Below are positions 1-8,873 of a DNA stretch of 22,717 nt, in pieces. Source of the stretch: Candidatus Eiseniibacteriota bacterium. Lineage in GTDB: Bacteria; Eisenbacteria; RBG-16-71-46. Each line of letters opens with the position of its first letter. The first letter of the stretch is position 1. A program made the translations under genes and the position numbers. The notes under the pieces were generated by a model. The model searched no databases, was not told the DNA's origin, and was given only the letters and a program-made list of their open reading frames with translations. The stretch spans positions 1-22,717 of the forward strand of contig JBGAOA010000067.1 of NCBI GenBank assembly GCA_044222065.1. The letters run 5' to 3'.

Positions 1-24
1 GAAGCTCGAGACGAGCGCGACCGC
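1..24 (-). repeat. Displaced duplicate of the nitroreductase 3' end (encodes AVALVSSF); left boundary of the SIR2-like cassette
   Basis: 1-24 gaagctcgagacgagcgcgaccgc vs 974-997 gaagctcgacaccagagcgacggc: 20/24 identical. All 4 differences are at synonymous third codon positions on the minus strand. Confidence 0.9.
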
Positions 25-923
25 TACTGAAACGCCGGGACGTCCTCAAGGAAGCCGATGATGCCGAGGCCCCTCGCTGACAGCATGATCTTCCGATCAC
101 GGAAGATCCCGTGAAGTACTTCTGCTCTCTTGACTTCGCCAAGCCCCTTCGCAGTCGCGAAGATCTGGATGTCGTCTCTGGTCTGCTCGACTACTTGCAT
201 GCGACTCAAGTTCGTTCGATCAAACCCGAATCCGAAGAAGCACACTCGCTCAGCGATCTGGAGAGACAGATGGGTTCTCGTCGCCGCCCCATCTTCGGGC
301 CTCTCCCCCACCACCCGGATTGTCTCGGAGGCGCGCTTGACGATCTCTGGAGAAGCTCCGGCTCCAAATTCGAGGTCAGACAGTTTTCCCAGACTCCCGT
401 AGAAGTGAATCACTTTGATCGGCTCGAGCGCGAAGTGTGCATGGACCCGATCGAGGCCAAATGCGGCCATCACGGCTTGCAGCAGCGATTGCTCAAACGT
501 GCGTTCGTAGTTGAACGTCACAACCGTGAGCAATCCCCAGTCTGGCCTCGGAGTCGCATACAGCAATTTGAAGAAGCTCGGGAACCAGCGATCGAGTTGA
601 GTGTCTCTAGGCGTGGTTTCCAGAGACGTGCGGCCTTCGAGCTTCAACAGCGAGGCCGCCATGGCCGCCTTGCCGAGCTCTTGAAACTCAGCACGCTGCT
701 CGAGAAACAAGTCGATCGAAGGCAGACATGATCGTCGAAACTCAGAGCGGAAGCCCTGAATCGCCTCCCATGAGTGGCCCAAGCCGGTCAGAACGGGCGT
801 GAGTCGTCCGTTCGAAGTCGAGAAGTCCTCGTCGATCACGTCTATGAAACTTGAGGCGCTGGGGAACCCGTACGGCATGCTTGCGCCTGCACCCAGAACT
901 AGCGTTGTGCGCCTCTTGATCAT
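24..923 (-). CDS. SIR2-like (SIR2_2/AbiH-like) domain protein, putative NADase/anti-phage protein, 299 aa
   Basis: C-terminal part of ORF 24..2021, starting MIKRRTTLVLGAGAS (ATG 923, GAGGG upstream). Motifs LVLGAGAS, VVTFNYE, IHFYGSLG and FFGFGF match the SIR2-like GAGxS/TxNYD/HGS/GYS pattern. GC is lower than the flank (32/60 in line 481 vs 42/60 in line 1621). Confidence 0.75.
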   Translation of the reverse strand: MIKRRTTLVLGAGASMPYGFPSASSFIDVIDEDFSTSNGRLTPVLTGLGHSWEAIQGFRSEFRRSCLPSIDLFLEQRAEFQELGKAAMAASLLKLEGRTSLETTPRDTQLDRWFPSFFKLLYATPRPDWGLLTVVTFNYERTFEQSLLQAVMAAFGLDRVHAHFALEPIKVIHFYGSLGKLSDLEFGAGASPEIVKRASETIRVVGERPEDGAATRTHLSLQIAERVCFFGFGFDRTNLSRMQVVEQTRDDIQIFATAKGLGEVKRAEVLHGIFRDRKIMLSARGLGIIGFLEDVPAFQ

Positions 924-997
924 GGACGGACTCGCCCTCGCAGCGCGACGACCTCGACTGCCTACGCGTTCCGGAAGCTCGACACCAGAGCGACGGC
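25..997. mobile_element. Putative ~973-bp one-gene insertion at the nitroreductase 3' end, with no integrase inside
   Basis: Bounded by the synonymous 24-bp repeats. Interior has lower GC and carries a replacement 3' end plus the SIR2-like gene. Confidence 0.65.
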
Positions 998-2152
998 ACG
1001 ACGCGGCGTGGGATCCACCGGCTTCGCGTGACCGAGGCGCACGAGCGCGACGGGTTCCTCGCCCGCGGCGCCGAACGCGGCGAGCAGGTGGTCGCGGTGC
1101 TCCGGCGCCTCGATCGGCGCCGAGATCGCATGGTGGGCGACGCCGAGCTGGGTCGCCTTGAGGCAGAAGCGCTCGAACGCCTGACCGGCGGCGAGCCACT
1201 GCGACTCGTCGCGGCGCGAGGTCGTGAACAACGCGAGCGCACCGGCCGAGCGCATCTGGTCGCGCGCCTGCGTCGAGGCCGCGTCGTTGCCGAAGCGCAG
1301 GAAGAAGCTCCCCGGTTTGAAGTAGCGGCTCGCGAGCAGTTCCGCGACCGGACCGACCTCGAGTGCGCTCACCGGCACGCCGTCGCCGCGCCGCTTCTCT
1401 TCGCCGTCGAAGCGCAGCCACGAGTACGCCTCGGCCTGCGCGCGCGCGTCGCGCATCTGCGAGCGCACCGCGTCGTGCGTGAGGCCGGCGATCGAGCGCA
1501 GCCGGTCGCGGCCGTCGAGCCAGTGGATGCGCACATCGTCCGACGCCTGCGCGAGCAGCTGCACGCGGTTCTCGGGGAACAGGCCGCGGCCGTCGTACTC
1601 GCGGCGGTTCGTGCGCCGCCGCGGGATCATCTCGAACAGCGCGCGGTCGTGACGCGTCTCGCCGCCGTGGCTCGAGACCTCGGCGACGACGGGCGACGAG
1701 GGACCGTGCGGGAAGTACGTGACCGCGGGGCGCAGCCGGTAGGCGCGCGCGGCGACGAGCAGGTTCTCGAGCGAGGCGCCGAGCGACGTCATGAGTCCGC
1801 GGCGGTCGGGATCGCTCACGGGCAGCGCGCGGCGCGTGTCGGCGACGACGCGAATCGTGTTGTCCTCGACCTCGAAGCGCCACGGCTGCGCGTTCCAGTC
1901 GCTCGGCGCGAGCACGGCGGCGCCGATCAGCGTGCGCGCGGCATCGGCGGGATTCGCGGGCAGCTCGGCCGGCAGCCGCCAGGGCTGGAGCGCGGTCGGG
2001 CGTTCCGGACGTCGCGCCCACGCGCGGTGAGGCTCGAGGGCCGCGTAGGCCGCGGCGCCTCCCATGAGAATGAGGAACCGTCGGCGGTCGAGCGGATTCG
2101 GGCTCGGAGTCTGTCGGTCGGCTCTCGGGCCGCTCCGTGTCTGGCCTTCCAT
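962..2152 (-). CDS. Acg-family FMN-binding nitroreductase-like protein with twin-arginine signal
   Basis: Start MEGQTRS (ATG 2152, uncertain). Tat-like LDRRRFLILMGGAAA. Motifs LAPSDWNAQPWRF, DPDRR..SLGASLEN, IPRRRTNRREY, WLAAGQAFERFCLKAT and VRLGHA..PTPRR are typical of the Acg family. Confidence 0.85.
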   Translation of the reverse strand: MEGQTRSGPRADRQTPSPNPLDRRRFLILMGGAAAYAALEPHRAWARRPERPTALQPWRLPAELPANPADAARTLIGAAVLAPSDWNAQPWRFEVEDNTIRVVADTRRALPVSDPDRRGLMTSLGASLENLLVAARAYRLRPAVTYFPHGPSSPVVAEVSSHGGETRHDRALFEMIPRRRTNRREYDGRGLFPENRVQLLAQASDDVRIHWLDGRDRLRSIAGLTHDAVRSQMRDARAQAEAYSWLRFDGEEKRRGDGVPVSALEVGPVAELLASRYFKPGSFFLRFGNDAASTQARDQMRSAGALALFTTSRRDESQWLAAGQAFERFCLKATQLGVAHHAISAPIEAPEHRDHLLAAFGAAGEEPVALVRLGHAKPVDPTPRRAVALVSSFRNA

Positions 2153-2275
2153 AGGGGCCGAAAGGTGCGGGAGACCCCCGGTCGCGTCAACCCGAACCTC
2201 GCCGGCACCCGAAGCAGTCGAACGAGCGCATATGCGGCAATACGAAAAAAATCTGCGCGAGTTCATCTCGGGGGG

Positions 2276-2304
2276 TTGACGCCCGGGGGGTCCGAAACGA
2301 GACT
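2276..2304 (+). promoter_or_regulatory. Sigma70-like promoter TTGACG-N17-GAGACT with upstream A-tract
   Basis: TTGACG 2276-2281, 17-nt spacer, GAGACT 2299-2304. A7 tract at 2245-2251 is unusual in this GC background. Confidence 0.65.
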
Positions 2305-2310
2305 GCTTGC

Positions 2311-2376
2311 GATCGCTTCTACGGCGGGCCCGCTCGGCCCGCGACGACCCCGGGGCCCGAGGCCCAGGGGTTTTTT
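2311..2376 (+). ncRNA. Candidate ~65-nt sRNA or attenuator leader upstream of the Mut7-C gene
   Basis: Lies between the promoter and an intrinsic terminator. Contains hairpin GCGGGCC(2324-2330)/GGCCCGC(2336-2342). Confidence 0.45.
2347..2376 (+). terminator. Rho-independent terminator
   Basis: CCCC-g-GGGCC-cga-GGCCC-a-GGGG followed by TTTTTT (2371-2376). Confidence 0.8.
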
Positions 2377-2398
2377 CATTGGGGCGGATGGCCCGATC

Positions 2399-2899
2399 GT
2401 GACCCCCACTCGTTTCGTGAACGACTCGGCTCTCGAGCGCCTCGCCCGTCGGCTCCGGATCCTCGGCTTCGACGTCGTGGGATCGCGCGGCTCGCGGCTC
2501 CTCGACCTGTTCGAGCGGGCGGCTCGGGAAGACCGCACGGTGCTCACGCCGAGCCTCCGCCGTCCGCGCGCCTACGCCGCGGTCCCGACGCTCACGGTCC
2601 CGCGCAGCGATCTCGATGCGGCCGCAGCCCGGGTGCTCGCGGGGTTCGAGCCCTCGGGGTCCCCCTTCACGCGCTGCCCCCTCTGCAACGCCTCGCTGCA
2701 GCGCCGGCAGCCCCTCGAAGCCCTCGGCGAAGTCCCGGGCCGGGTGCTCCGGAGCGCGAAGGGGCCGATCTCCTACTGCCCCCACTGCGGGAAGTGGTTC
2801 TGGGACGGCACTCACGTCGCACGGTTGCGCGAGTGGATGGGCCGGCTCGGAATCGCCGCCGGGCCCGATGCCAATCGCAGCGGCTCTGAAAGCGCCTGA
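2399..2899 (+). CDS. Mut7-C RNase domain protein (PIN fold plus C4 zinc ribbon)
   Basis: GTG 2399 in frame with ORF 1028..2899. RFVNDSALERLARRLRILGFDV, RCPLCNASL and CPHCGKWFWDGTH match the Mut7-C pattern. Confidence 0.9.
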   Translation: MTPTRFVNDSALERLARRLRILGFDVVGSRGSRLLDLFERAAREDRTVLTPSLRRPRAYAAVPTLTVPRSDLDAAAARVLAGFEPSGSPFTRCPLCNASLQRRQPLEALGEVPGRVLRSAKGPISYCPHCGKWFWDGTHVARLREWMGRLGIAAGPDANRSGSESA

Positions 2900-2924
2900 A
2901 ACACGCCTCGCGACGCGAAAGTTG

Positions 2925-2953
2925 TTGAATCGGCCCGCGCCGTTCACCAAAAT
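2925..2953 (+). promoter_or_regulatory. Sigma70-like promoter TTGAAT-N17-CAAAAT
   Basis: TTGAAT 2925-2930, 17-nt spacer, CAAAAT 2948-2953. The predicted +1 (about 2960-2961) coincides with the base of a long hairpin. Confidence 0.6.
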
Positions 2954-2960
2954 GTTCCGC

Positions 2961-3084
2961 GCGAACGGGCCGGGCTGCGGGACGGGCCTGGAGAGCTTCG
3001 TGGGGAGTGGCTCGGCCGTAGTGCCGGCTCCGTTCGCACTTCTTCGCCGGCCTCGCGTGGCTTGTCCCCTCGCGGGCCGGCGAA
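2961..3084 (+). ncRNA. Candidate structured ncRNA or leader with two long hairpins, family unknown
   Basis: Stem 1: 2961-2988 pairs with 3009-3037 (about 26 bp including 3 G-U), 20-nt purine-rich loop. Stem 2: TTCGCCGGCC 3043-3052/GGCCGGCGAA 3075-3084 plus CGCG/CGCG. Confidence 0.55.
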
Positions 3085-3201: not shown

Positions 3202-4062
3202 ATGGATCTCTCGATCGTCCTCGTCCACTACAAGTCCCCCGACGCGCTGTTCGAGTGCCTGCGCACGCTCGACGCCGATCGGGCGGGACTCGCCTCCGAG
3301 ATCGTGGTCGTGGACAACGACTCGCGGGACGGCACCGTGGATACGCTGCGCTCGCGGCGGCCGGACGTGCAGGTGATCGCGAATCGCGACAACGTCGGCT
3401 ACGCGAAGGCGGTGAACCAGGGGATCCGCGCCACCACGGGCGACGTCGTGCTCGTGATGAACCCCGACTGCGAGGTGAGGCCGGGCGCGCTCGCGACGCT
3501 CGTCGCCCACCTGCGCGCGCACCCGCGCGTCGCGATCGCGGGGCCGGAGATCTCGAACCCCGACGGCACCGTCGAGTTCTCGGCGCGCGCGTTCCCGGAC
3601 CACTGGACGTTCCTCTTCAACCGCTACTCGCTGCTCACGCGGCTGTTCCCGAACAACCCGTGGTCGCGGCGCTACCTGCTCACCGACTGGGACCATCGCT
3701 CGGTGCGCGAGGTGGACTGGCTCTCGGGCGCGTGCCTCGCCGTGCGCCGCAAGGCGATCGACGAAGTCGGCGGCATGGACGAGGCGTTCTTCATGTTCAA
3801 CGAGGACGTGGACTGGTGCCGTCGCACGAAGCTCGCGGGCTGGGCGAACGTCTACGTGCCGGACGCGCACGTCGTGCACCACATCGGCGCGAGCAAGGGT
3901 CGGGTCGCTTCGCGCGTGATCCTCGGGCGGCACGCGGGGATGATCTACTACTTCCGCAAACACCACCCCGCGAATCCGCTCGTCGAAGCGCTCGCCGCGG
4001 CGTTCATCTGGATGCGCGCCGGACTGATGCTCGCCCAGAACGCGTTGAAGCCGCGCGGCTGA
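3202..4062 (+). CDS. GT2-family glycosyltransferase (WbbL-like)
   Basis: SIVLVHY, VVVDNDSRDGT, NVGYAKAVNQG, MNPD, DWLSGACLAVRR, GMDEAFFMFNEDVDWC, VVHHIGAS. Confidence 0.93.
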   Translation: MDLSIVLVHYKSPDALFECLRTLDADRAGLASEIVVVDNDSRDGTVDTLRSRRPDVQVIANRDNVGYAKAVNQGIRATTGDVVLVMNPDCEVRPGALATLVAHLRAHPRVAIAGPEISNPDGTVEFSARAFPDHWTFLFNRYSLLTRLFPNNPWSRRYLLTDWDHRSVREVDWLSGACLAVRRKAIDEVGGMDEAFFMFNEDVDWCRRTKLAGWANVYVPDAHVVHHIGASKGRVASRVILGRHAGMIYYFRKHHPANPLVEALAAAFIWMRAGLMLAQNALKPRG

Positions 4063-5370: not shown

Positions 5371-6444
5371 TCAGCCCTTCCGGATGCGCTGCAGGTCCTT
5401 CTTCGCCTCTTCGAGCTTCGGATCGAGCTTCACCGCCTGCTCGTACTCGGCCCGCGCCTCGGCCTTCTTCCCCTGCTTCTCGTAAATCTGACCGAGCCGC
5501 CAGTGCGCGCCCGCGTGCGAGGCGCCGCCGGGCTCGGGCTCGGCCGCGAGATAGCCCTTGAGCCAGCGCTCGGCGCGCGCGAAGTCGCCGGAGCCGTTCC
5601 CGGTCACGATCACGCGCGCCGCCTGGTACTGGGCCGCGAGATCGCCCGGCCGCTCGCGCGCCGCCTGCGCGAGCAGCGCATCGATCGCCTCGTAGCGCCC
5701 GTCGCGCGCGTAGAGCTGCGCGAGCAGCACGTACGCGCTGCCGCGCCCGGGGTCGGCGGCGAGCGCCTCGCGCGCGACCTGCTCCGATTCGGCGTAGCGC
5801 TTCTTCGCGCCGTACCAGCTCGCGAGCGACATGCGCGCGCGGTACGAGTGCGGCGCCGCGGCGATTGCCGCGCGCCAGTGCCCCTCGACACCGTTCGTGT
5901 CGTTCGTCGCGAGCGCGTGGCGGGCGCGCAGGATGGCGCCCTGCTCGGCGTCGAGCTTCGACGTCTCTTCGAGCAAGGCGAGCGCCTTCTTCTTGTCGCC
6001 GCCGATGATACCCGGCGCCTTCAGGTAGAACAGCAACAGCCCTTCGCGCGCGTCCCACTGGCGCGGATCGAGCGCGAGCGCGGCCTCCGCCTCCTTCTTG
6101 AAGCGCTTGCCGAGCCCGATCCCCTTGAGCGGCCCGGCGCGCTCGGCGAGCGAGCCGGCCACCATCGCGAGCTGCGTGTGGTAGGCCGCGTGGTCGGGCG
6201 CGAGCGACACCGCCTTCTCGGCCGCGGCGAGCGCGGACTCGTCGTGCCCGTAGACGTCTTCAATCTGCGACCACAGCCACTGCGCCTCGGCGTCGTTCGG
6301 GTTCGCCTTCACGCGCGGCTCGATCGCCGCGCGCGCGGCGCGAAAGCGGCCGAGCTCGAGCAGCCGGGCGGGCGAGTCCTCGGCGCGCGCCTCGGGCGCG
6401 AGGACGGCGAACGAAAGCAGCAGGGCGAGCGTGCGAACTCTCAT
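5371..6444 (-). CDS. Secreted tetratricopeptide-repeat protein
   Basis: Start MRVRTLALLLSFAVLAPEARA (signal peptide, GGAG upstream). Helical repeats such as AHWRLGQIYEKQGKKAEARAEYEQAVKLDP; also FYLKAPGIIGGD. Confidence 0.85.
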   Translation of the reverse strand: MRVRTLALLLSFAVLAPEARAEDSPARLLELGRFRAARAAIEPRVKANPNDAEAQWLWSQIEDVYGHDESALAAAEKAVSLAPDHAAYHTQLAMVAGSLAERAGPLKGIGLGKRFKKEAEAALALDPRQWDAREGLLLFYLKAPGIIGGDKKKALALLEETSKLDAEQGAILRARHALATNDTNGVEGHWRAAIAAAPHSYRARMSLASWYGAKKRYAESEQVAREALAADPGRGSAYVLLAQLYARDGRYEAIDALLAQAARERPGDLAAQYQAARVIVTGNGSGDFARAERWLKGYLAAEPEPGGASHAGAHWRLGQIYEKQGKKAEARAEYEQAVKLDPKLEEAKKDLQRIRKG

Positions 6445-6540
6445 CGGACTCTCCGGGGTGGATCCGTGGCGCGTCGGGGGGCGTGCGCCGCGGCCGCGCG
6501 GCGCGCGAAGGTCGCAACGCACGGGGCGTGCCGCACGTCC

Positions 6541-6618
6541 GCGACGACGAGCGCGCCCCGAACGACGTCGGGCGCGGCCCCCGCGGGGACCGCGCCCGAT
6601 GCGTCGTGGCGTCGTCGC
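6541..6618 (-). terminator. Long GC hairpin 3' of the beta-barrel gene (terminator or stability stem)
   Basis: Nested inverted repeats 6541-6549/6610-6618, 6562-6567/6602-6607 and 6568-6577/6590-6599; no U-tract. Confidence 0.5.
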
Positions 6619-6640
6619 GACGGCGCGCAGCGAGCGCGTC

Positions 6641-7240
6641 TCACCAGTACGTGCGCGTCCAGGCGACCTTCGCGGACACCCGGCCGGTCGAGGGCTTGAA
6701 TCCGCCGAACACGGGATTGTCGGCCTCGGCGTCGCTGGCGACCGACGTCACGCGGACGTACACGCCGAGCAGGCTGTTGTGATCGATCGGGGTGTGCACG
6801 CCGCCCGAGACGAACAGGCCGGGCTGGAAGTCGGAGTAATCGGCGCCCGTGCGATAGAGCTTCGTGTAGACGGCCGAGAACCCGGTGCCGAAGAACGGAT
6901 GGACCGGCGCCTTCCACTTGAAGTGCCAGAGCATCTCGAAGCTCGCCGGCAGTTCGATCTGCGACGAGCTGCTGAAGCGTCCGAGCAGGTTGTGCTCGAG
7001 CGAGCCCGCGAGCATCAGGTGCGTGCCGACCACGCGGCCGTAGCTCACGCCGTAGCCGATGTTGCCGTTGGCGGCGTCCTCGTCGAGGCTGCGCGCGTAG
7101 CCGCCGCGGAACGAAATCCAGTGCGCGCCCTTGCTCCACGCATCGGGCGCATCTTCGGCGCGCGAGGCGCCGGCGGTCGCGAGCGCGGCGGCGAGCACGG
7201 CGGCCGCGACCACGAGCGACCGCGCAGAGCGGAACGTCAT
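6641..7240 (-). CDS. Outer-membrane beta-barrel protein (OmpA/OmpW-like, small barrel)
   Basis: Start MTFRSARSLVVAAAVLAAALATAGASRA (AGGAG upstream). Alternating beta-strand pattern, HPFFGTG, aromatic C-terminus (WTRTYW). Confidence 0.75.
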   Translation of the reverse strand: MTFRSARSLVVAAAVLAAALATAGASRAEDAPDAWSKGAHWISFRGGYARSLDEDAANGNIGYGVSYGRVVGTHLMLAGSLEHNLLGRFSSSSQIELPASFEMLWHFKWKAPVHPFFGTGFSAVYTKLYRTGADYSDFQPGLFVSGGVHTPIDHNSLLGVYVRVTSVASDAEADNPVFGGFKPSTGRVSAKVAWTRTYW

Positions 7241-7601
7241 CGGAGAGCTGCTCCTTTCGGGATCACCCGGTCGGGTGGATCGCTCCGAGGCCGCGGCCGC
7301 GGGCGGCGCGGCGGCCTCGAGCGCGTGCCCGAGTCGCGCGAAGCGCACCCACGGGCGCAAAGAGGCCGGGACCGTAGCAAACGGGCCGCGGCGCGGACAA
7401 GGGCGGTGCCGCGGGGCGCCGGAGGCGCTGCGCGCTCGTCGAAGCGGCGCGTTGCCCGGGCTCCCGCGCTCCCGCTCGGGGCTCGATGCGCGTGCGCGGA
7501 CGCCGCGCGCCGCGAGAGAGCGTTCGATCGGCGGCGAATGCCCGGCGCTCGCCCCCGCACCGCTTCCCCGCGCGCGGCGGCTTCCGTTATGGTCCGCGAC
7601 G

Positions 7602-8873
7602 ATGCGTGCCAGGACTCCCCGCACTCCGGCGCTGCGCTATCGCGCGGCGCGTCGGACCGACGTCGAGACGCTCGCCGAGCTCGGCTTCCGCGCCTATCGC
7701 GTGGCGAGCCTCGAGAAGCGGCGCGAGTTCTACACGGATCACCCGCGCTTCACGATCAAGGACGTGCGGGTCGCCGAGCTCGACGGCCAGATCGTGGCCT
7801 CGCTCGTCCTCTACCCGCTCGTCGGCTACGTGCGCACCCAGAAGCTGCCGTTCGTCGGCATCGGCTCGGTCGCCGTGTCGCCCGAGCACCGCCGCCGCGG
7901 CGTCGGCGAGACGCTGCTGCGTTCGGCGCTGCGCGAGATGCGGCAGAACGGCCAGCCCTACACGACGCTCTACGCGTTCCGCGGCTCCTACTACCGCAAG
8001 ATGGGCTGGGGGCCGGTCGAGCAGGTTCAGCAGCTCACGGTCTCGCCGAAGAACCTGCCGCACTCGGAGCAGGCGCGGAACGTCCGGCGCCTCACGCTGC
8101 CCGACCGGCCCGCCGTGCAGGCGCTCTACGAGCGCATCGCGATGCAGGGTCACTTCGCGCTCACGCGCAAGCCCGAGTGGTGGGCGCAGCGGCTCTGGAC
8201 GCTCGGCGGCGACTGGGTCGTGTACGAGGGCAAGCGCCGCGGACACATCGAGGGTTACCTCTACTACGAAACGGACCACTCGCGCGGGCCGTTCGCGCTC
8301 GAACTCGAGCTGCGCGAATTCGCCGCCGCCACGCCCGACGCGCACCGCGCGCTCGTCGGCTACCTCGCGTCGCTGTCCGACCAGGTCGCGCAGATCGAAG
8401 CGTGCGTGCCCGCGGACAACGCGTGGTTCACGCTGCTCAAGTCCGCCGAGAACCTGAAGCCGGGCCCGCAGCTCGGCGTCTTCACCGACACGGGCAACGT
8501 CGCGACCGGACTCATGCTGCGGCTCACCGACGTGAAGGCCGCGCTCGAGCAGTTCCCGGTCGCGCCCGCCGCGCGCGGCGACGTCGCGATCGAGGTCGCC
8601 GACGAGCAGCTACCGCAGAACGCGCGCGTGTACCGCGTCTCGGCGCGCGAGGGGCGCCTCAAGGTGGCGCCCGAGTCCGCGCGGCACGCGCGCACGCGAA
8701 CGCCGCGCGTGTCGCTCGGCGTGGACACGCTCGCAACGCTCGTCGCCGGCACGCTCTCGCCCGCGCGCGCGGCCGAAGTCGGGCTCGCCGAGTCGAGCGA
8801 CGGCGGCGTCGAGACGCTCGAGTACTGGTTCCGTACGCGGCCCGCGTTCCTCTACCCGCTGAACGGCTTCTAG
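7602..8873 (+). CDS. Eis-like GNAT acetyltransferase with C-terminal SCP2-like domain
   Basis: VGIGSVAVSPEHRRRGVG acetyl-CoA motif, LYAFRGSYYRKMGW, MLRLTDVKAALE, C-terminal Phe (LNGF). 423 aa from ATG 7602. Confidence 0.85.
   Translation: MRARTPRTPALRYRAARRTDVETLAELGFRAYRVASLEKRREFYTDHPRFTIKDVRVAELDGQIVASLVLYPLVGYVRTQKLPFVGIGSVAVSPEHRRRGVGETLLRSALREMRQNGQPYTTLYAFRGSYYRKMGWGPVEQVQQLTVSPKNLPHSEQARNVRRLTLPDRPAVQALYERIAMQGHFALTRKPEWWAQRLWTLGGDWVVYEGKRRGHIEGYLYYETDHSRGPFALELELREFAAATPDAHRALVGYLASLSDQVAQIEACVPADNAWFTLLKSAENLKPGPQLGVFTDTGNVATGLMLRLTDVKAALEQFPVAPAARGDVAIEVADEQLPQNARVYRVSAREGRLKVAPESARHARTRTPRVSLGVDTLATLVAGTLSPARAAEVGLAESSDGGVETLEYWFRTRPAFLYPLNGF

Follow-up and report, generated by a model that had tools for sequence, protein, structure and literature searches.

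A SIR2-like gene between two copies of a nitroreductase gene end in an uncultured sludge bacterium of Candidatus Eiseniibacteriota

Anatomy of the insert

The window analysed here, i.e. the whole stretch of 22,717 nt, is an entire contig (C114; JBGAOA010000067.1, assembly GCA_044222065.1) of an uncultured sludge bacterium (Candidatus Eiseniibacteriota), whose 4.2 Mb genome has a GC content of 72 % and is 94 % complete. Position 1 is the contig end, and the features next to it, all on the minus strand, are as follows:

1..24, minus strand: orphan repeat copy (AVALVSSF) of the nitroreductase 3' end, truncated at the contig end; 20/24 match, host-typical codons
24..923, minus strand: SIR2-fold gene, 299 aa, both ends complete (translation)
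924..961, minus strand: leader of 38 bases between the nitroreductase stop and the SIR2 start
960..1241, minus strand: region where the divergence of the SIR2-bearing allele from those of other strains is greatest (contig comparison); candidate homologous anchor
962..2152, minus strand: conserved nitroreductase-family gene (PF00881), the target
974..997, minus strand: in-gene repeat copy, followed by R-N-A-stop at 973..962

The first-pass annotation had described the two repeat copies, and alignment and translation confirm its reading: on the minus strand 24..1 and 997..974 are identical at 20 of 24 bases, both encode AVALVSSF, all four differing codons are synonymous, and the last base of the SIR2 stop codon (frame 923..24) is the first base of the orphan. 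The copies are spaced 973 bases apart, with the edge of the duplication 36 bases before the nitroreductase gene end and 24 bases of it visible before the contig ends. The 949 bases between them have a GC content of 58 % versus 72 % for the genome and hold the last four codons of the nitroreductase, the leader and one complete SIR2-fold gene, the other long frame in the insert being the antisense shadow of the latter. The GC3 of the SIR2 gene is 69 % versus 91 % in the neighbouring gene, and a foreign one-gene insert is supported. As had also been claimed, the DNA between the copies (25-973) is free of integrase and transposase genes and of inverted repeats, and no inverted repeat with arms of at least 6 bases was found at either junction. 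A sigma-70 scan, which is weak in 70 % GC DNA, gave no promoter-like site in 1-2400, and no terminator was found in the leader. Since the leader has neither room nor a match for a promoter of its own, the SIR2 gene is presumably expressed by read-through from the nitroreductase gene.

Across all six frames of the 4.2-Mb genome, the heptapeptide AVALVSS is confined to these two copies. At the DNA level, the in-gene 24-mer has two other genome matches of at least 20/24 on both strands, the orphan among them, while the GC-richer orphan 24-mer has 16, and the weight therefore rests on the peptide match and its position rather than on the 20/24 identity alone.

The two copies also differ in codon usage. 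The in-gene tail uses GCT (2 % of its amino acid's codons in the genome), CGT (5 %, twice), GGT (5 %) and GAT (13 %), whereas the codons of the orphan account for 28-98 % of those of their amino acid, and the orphan is the more host-like copy at three of the four differing codons. The codon contrast drawn by the first-pass annotation therefore stands as far as the host-typical orphan and the rare tail codons are concerned, but the last 14 codons of the nitroreductase reach only the 11th percentile when called genes are ranked by rare codons, and CGT CGT, GAT and GGT sit upstream of 997, beyond the duplicated stretch. With its host-typical codons and silent differences, the orphan looks like the displaced end of the host gene, as had been supposed, and this is probably what it is.

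The SIR2-fold protein and its relatives

For the SIR2 protein 240 relatives were found, the best of which are 28-38 % identical, and both of its ends align with 38 relatives. Pfam gave no match for the protein of the window, while 22 of the 39 aligned members match PF13289 (SIR2-like domain); a PADLOC match covers the first 37 residues only. The predicted model (pLDDT 91.5) matches the folds of Sir2-HerA, KomC, SIRT3, ThsA and DSR2 at TM-scores of around 0.4-0.55, and the GAGAS loop (G11-S15) and N138 are invariant in the 39 aligned sequences. The catalytic His146 of KomC aligns, in a weak alignment (E 0.0003), to Tyr175, residues 173-175 being encoded at 399-407 of the minus strand. Position 175 is Tyr in 29 and His in 10 of the 39 members, and an invariant His lies two residues earlier; judged from these residues, the family possibly has a variant SIR2 active site. 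The protein thus shares the SIR2 fold, the GAGAS loop and a T-x-N-Y motif with the SIR2-domain NADases (Sir2-HerA, KomC, ThsA, DSR2, Avs5), but differs from them in being single-domain, in having no partner gene in the insert, and in the Tyr175 that takes the place of KomC His146.

Members of the SIR2 family were also found in 28 viral-collection loci. Neighbours could be called at 22 of the 23 loci looked at, giving 44 neighbouring genes, two of which are integrases; there was no common partner family among these 44 neighbours, and none of the 22 loci showed flanking direct repeats. Because of the fold of the predicted model and the locations of these relatives, the SIR2 gene may have an anti-phage role.

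Two further relatives lie beside repeats. One (L045, genome G099) belongs to an array of single genes separated by structured repeats of 110-150 bases that are around 78 % alike (at about 1-145, 1220-1367, 2444-2555 and 3289-3395), and no clear pair of integron core motifs was found in these repeats. In the other (L047, genome G054; 1290-1500), an attC-like stretch bearing both core motifs comes after the SIR2-family member, and the next gene has a similar repeat behind it; from this layout, this member is probably an integron cassette.

Alleles of the site and gene-end copies elsewhere

Four sludge metagenome runs from four studies (X1, X2, X3 and X15, of 24 listed) were compared with positions 1-3000 on the basis of contigs, not reads, and partial or absent cover of the SIR2 gene in a run was not counted as absence of the gene. 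In all four runs contigs match parts of the SIR2 gene with 0 differences. A contig of X1 matches 449-1160 with 0 differences and so bridges the nitroreductase-SIR2 junction, while a contig of X3 (depth 2.7), the only listed contig across the joint between SIR2 and the orphan, matches 1-112 with 0 differences and extends 80 bases past position 1. A loose end from run X3 was not found in the genome. An assembly artefact, i.e. a chimera of SIR2-bearing and SIR2-free strains at the contig end, is very improbable: the orphan does occupy the last 24 positions of a contig that comes from a mixed population, and the one contig across the joint is shallow, but that contig follows the window exactly and continues beyond it, the main nitroreductase allele of X3 shows 24 differences from the window in 560 bases, so that X3 is unlikely to be the sole source of the window, and the comparable scars described below sit inside contigs.

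In the same runs, the contigs that follow the nitroreductase gene depart from the window at 960 (X1, X2, X3) or 946 (X15), a short way past the nitroreductase stop. The SIR2-free allele anticipated for this site is therefore seen in other sludge samples, and SIR2-free and SIR2-bearing alleles coexist in the same sludge populations. Compared with the window, the X1 allele (record 3) differs at 16 of 201 bases in 960-1160 and the X2 allele (record 19) at 12 of 143 bases in 960-1102, and seven strain differences, among those listed, fall in 1184-1241. Divergence is around 8 % in 960-1160 versus around 4 % in 1131-1781, and contigs of X2 and X3 show 0-3 differences each in 1752-3000. Among the differences listed for 1031-1818, 18 are silent, the host-like state being found nine times in the window and nine times in the other strain, so that the listed differences give neither the direction of transfer nor the foreign allele. 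One contig of X15 joins the other haplotype to the SIR2 leader, as far as 936, a combination that may be genuine or stem from a collapsed bubble.

The nitroreductase gene (960-2260) is a mosaic among the sludge runs, with blocks of around 4 % divergence alternating with near-identical blocks. This mosaicism is a sign of frequent homologous recombination, unless it results from collapsed assembly bubbles.

Beyond the sludge runs, scans of metagenome and genome contigs yielded relatives at 54-64 % identity only, and a relative found via the target protein is titled Candidatus Eisenbacteria. Within the family, the nitroreductase gene is present in 82 of 88 other genomes, and its C-terminal motif is conserved among the orthologues shown. 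The downstream DNA was compared in 80 of the 82 gene-bearing genomes, two genera supplying about 30 of these loci, which are hence not independent. A convergent gene homologous to C85:2801-4204, which we take to be a tldE/pmbA-like gene, lies at most 450 bases from the nitroreductase stop in 35 of the 80 loci and farther away, behind other genes, in 20; it was not found in 21, and four loci are too short. The nitroreductase 3' site thus takes variable cargo across the family, as had been expected. The SIR2 family itself is found in none of the 88 other family genomes and in four of 205 other genomes of the phylum.

One genome of another genus (G013) carries a 25-base copy of the nitroreductase tail 2.1 kb downstream, beyond a gene for a membrane protein; there the duplication has its edge 92 bases from the gene end, as opposed to 36 in the window. 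This was the single hit of the tail-copy test at the 80 family loci, while the gene-middle control gave 0/80, and a 7-mer peptide test likewise gave one and none. A duplicate is seen in one of the 20 family loci with cargo, a count obtained with a DNA test that would miss repeats as short and diverged as those of the window.

The sequence left of position 1 is absent from the assembly. No overlapping contig end (8-129 bases) was found for position 1 anywhere in the assembly. In the genome under study, the homologue of the usual downstream gene lies on contig C85 (C85:2801-4204). No copy of the nitroreductase tail was found at the start of this contig, and its first three genes were not found behind the nitroreductase gene in any of the 80 family loci; a join of C114 and C85 is suggested by synteny, the sole indication.

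The first-pass annotation had proposed to scan the genome for similar duplicates of gene ends, and such duplicates were found. The last 150 bases of each of 2783 genes (own gene calls) were searched within 15 kb, outside in-frame genes. At 40 bits or more, 11 of the 2783 genes have a downstream copy of their end, compared with three that have an upstream copy, one and one for gene middles, and two and three for gene starts. Upon inspection by eye, five of the 11 proved to be orphan ends around cargo, while six did not, i.e. four chance matches, one paralogue tail motif and one tandem copy. Together with two cases from a peptide scan, the following were retained:

C13: FGGY-family kinase gene end; cargo, a Na/H exchanger
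C126: EamA gene end; cargo, a membrane protein
C3: esterase gene end; cargo, a secreted protein
C50: GNAT gene end; cargo of 13 kb
C61:31477: orphan end, less sure (tail motif common to paralogues)
C34: found by peptide scan; cargo, a DUF4160 and DUF2442 pair
C43 (L053), 5681-8517: found by peptide scan; decayed partial copy of a carbonic anhydrase gene at the contig end, behind a 332-aa frame

The genome therefore holds about seven further integrase-free inserts bracketed by gene-end copies.

Among the candidates rejected on inspection, those on C108, C110, C12, C72, C61:8735 and C54 were chance or domain matches, C5 has a tail motif common to a paralogue, C20 is a local 52-base tandem copy, and C25 and C56 are probable paralogues. 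Chance matches dominated both a search of 160 low-GC stretches for 19/24 repeats and a self-comparison run without filters.

Scar repeats range from 24 to about 190 bases, those of the sister scars reaching 42-191, and the differences between their copies are a mixture of silent and non-silent ones. At C126 the stop codon of the cargo falls inside the repeat, much as at the SIR2 locus. At C34 the first copy gains 14 codons. The esterase gene on C3 (L050; about 90490-91397 and 88727-89000, minus strand) has a first copy without around 100 bases that are present in the orphan, and is out of frame, so that neither copy is whole; the defect is due to either a later deletion or a misassembly. Since the C3 target is out of frame and C34 gains codons, restoration of the target is not a rule.

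At C50 it is the first copy and not the orphan that is more host-like (7 versus 1). The polarity at the SIR2 locus could accordingly be reversed, with the SIR2 allele being the resident one and the orphan having arrived with the DNA left of position 1, anchored by homology on the far side. The product would be the same, at least two other downstream alleles exist (those leaving the window at 960 and 946), and the orphan is the less host-like copy in some sister scars; at this locus, however, host-typical codons mark the orphan and rare ones the in-gene copy, and the SIR2 gene is the part that is low in GC and rare in the family, and we therefore regard a reversed order as improbable.

Three tyrosine recombinases and one resolvase are encoded in the genome, and no match to a large serine recombinase was found. 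One of the tyrosine recombinases (241 aa; C76, L057:7122-7847) lies close to a contig end. The stretch with the lowest GC content listed in the genome (57 %; C16:79019-83228, L058) also reaches a contig end. DprA was found, while neither ComEC (PF03772) nor Ku has a match in the 94 % complete genome.

Integron attC sites are marked by the core motifs RYYYAAC and GTTRRRY, neither of which occurs in the leader or the tail, so that the SIR2 locus lacks the mark of an integron cassette. A broader possibility is that of a non-autonomous, site-specific mini-cassette, served by a recombinase encoded elsewhere and excising as a 973-base circle via the repeat. The insert is indeed compact and promoterless and takes the last base of its stop codon from the start of the repeat, as gene cassettes do, the relative L047 has an attC-like setting, and the 241-aa tyrosine recombinase is at hand. 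Set against this are the lack of inverted repeats and core motifs at the junctions, the lack of a common motif by eye among the eight junctions, the unrestored targets of C3 and C34, and the viral-collection loci, 0/22 of which have a flanking direct repeat; such a cassette is quite improbable. For similar reasons, the claim that a defined unit of around 973 bases, with its own recoded replacement end, moved in trans is not supported: the rare codons and strain differences extend upstream of 997, the edge in G013 is at 92 and not 36, the junctions have no motif in common, and two scars are not restored.

Origin of the insert

Of the three options that the first-pass annotation had left side by side, homology-assisted capture fits best, the trans-mobilised mini-cassette is unlikely, and an island remnant is the main rival. 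We consider it moderately probable that the locus is the scar of an additive gene gain by host recombination with a related strain. We infer the donor, the old copy and the route as follows. The donor would be a related strain that already had a SIR2-like gene behind its nitroreductase gene; its DNA would have paired with the nitroreductase gene of the recipient and replaced the 3' part, while the SIR2-stop end of the incoming DNA would have been joined, without long homology, to the recipient gene 36 bases before its end. The resulting order would be the gene with the donor tail, SIR2, and then the old tail of the recipient. Either one homologous crossover with an illegitimate joint or one crossover involving a circularised fragment would give this product, and the data do not separate the two. 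The differences would be silent because both tails are working alleles of two strains, rather than because of recoding by an element.

Host recombination would explain the silent differences, the donor-like differences upstream, the variable repeat lengths, the unrelated cargos and the absent integrases. It is favoured by the strain differences and rare codons that run upstream of the duplicated stretch, by the mosaic haplotypes of the nitroreductase gene, by the unrelated cargos of the sister scars, by the different edge in G013, by the absence of the SIR2 family from the 88 other family genomes, by the enrichment of gene-end copies downstream of genes and by the small number of recombinases in the genome. 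Against it, the unassembled DNA left of position 1 could contain an integrase or additional repeats. The joint coincides exactly with the cargo stop at the SIR2 locus, while at C126 the cargo stop is located within the repeat; unless selection or subsequent trimming is responsible, random joining would not be expected to be so precise. The lack of a ComEC or Ku match, which bears on uptake and joining, the nine-to-nine split of silent changes, the opposite polarity at C50, the one of 20 family loci and the six spurious hits among the top 11 also count against it.

Several known systems resemble the locus. Homology-facilitated illegitimate recombination has been proposed, in the form of sequential displacement, for Vibrio T6SS immunity arrays and Rhs orphan tips (PMC5361080), and also for dimorphic loci (PMC2884548). 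As these papers present the process, the Vibrio and Rhs cases share with the history proposed for our locus an upstream homologous anchor, a downstream non-homologous joint and an old 3' piece left behind the new DNA, but the displaced piece described there is a functional toxin tip or immunity gene, whereas here it amounts to a few codons of a housekeeping gene in a genome with no ComEC match. At our locus, no shared bases are visible upstream of the duplication edge.

Insertion with long target duplication (Furuta, Abe and Kobayashi 2010; PMC2853133) is described in that paper's account for restriction-modification genes, with imperfect direct repeats of more than 30 bases, inserts of less than 20 kb and an unproven mechanism. 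The likeness to the account given there extends to a small defence-type cargo, imperfect direct repeats of variable length, the absence of other mobile genes and repeats that may overlap the 3' end of a gene, and our insert likewise is shorter than 20 kb and holds no other mobile-element gene. It differs in its SIR2-like cargo, with no restriction or modification gene, and in the 24 bases of repeat visible. The same scar surrounds unrelated cargos that are not nucleases, which rules out breakage by an enzyme of the cargo as a general explanation.

A third parallel is icd of Escherichia coli, where, in the description given by PMC13626634, the 15-kb prophage e14 excises and a C-terminal fragment with mostly silent differences (icdC) lies at its far end. 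There, as here, the gene is completed by one copy of the tail and a C-terminal fragment with silent differences remains at the far end of the insert; compared with e14 as described, our insert is a single gene without an integrase, and the duplication edge varies between lineages (two cases, in which a later deletion could have shifted the edge). This anatomy is the same as would be left by an integrase-bearing island that integrated in the 3' part of the gene with its own copy of the tail, and of which later deletions left SIR2 and trimmed the displaced tail to the SIR2 stop. Such trimming would account for both the exact stop joint and the rare codons upstream of the duplication, and the 28 viral-collection loci, with two integrases among 44 neighbours, point in the same direction. 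However, around eight genes of one genome would each have to have gained and then lost an integrase, no remnant of one lies between the copies, and the scar in G013 has a different edge, so that a trimmed island, although the main rival, is unlikely.

Overall, the locus works like known insertion scars, yet it is not a member of the restriction-modification, integrase or integron-cassette class, as it has no restriction-modification genes, no integrase and no attC. That several unrelated inserts of this genome bear the same scar points to ordinary recombination with relatives, an event of a known kind, and not to a new self-moving cassette. The pattern of insertion with target duplication has been described since 2000-2010, and the locus alone is one more case. 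A literature search, with most subscription journals outside its scope, found no paper on genome-wide orphan gene tails.

It is tempting to speculate, although we hold this to be rather doubtful, that the displaced gene tails mark a general route, independent of integrases, by which blocks of 0.6-13 kb are added behind housekeeping genes in this lineage, that these blocks might loop out via the repeat and insert again at the corresponding gene of other strains without ComEC-type uptake, and that the cargo here would represent a one-gene anti-phage SIR2 class with Tyr or a shifted His for the catalytic His. Regardless, orphan gene tails offer an inexpensive way to recognise recent gene gains missed by integrase-based island finders, and the presence of alleles with and without SIR2 in the same sludge metagenomes makes the unproven mechanism testable. 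The locus also provides a candidate for a SIR2 defence protein encoded by a single gene; its family is widespread, and most aligned members are without the usual catalytic His.
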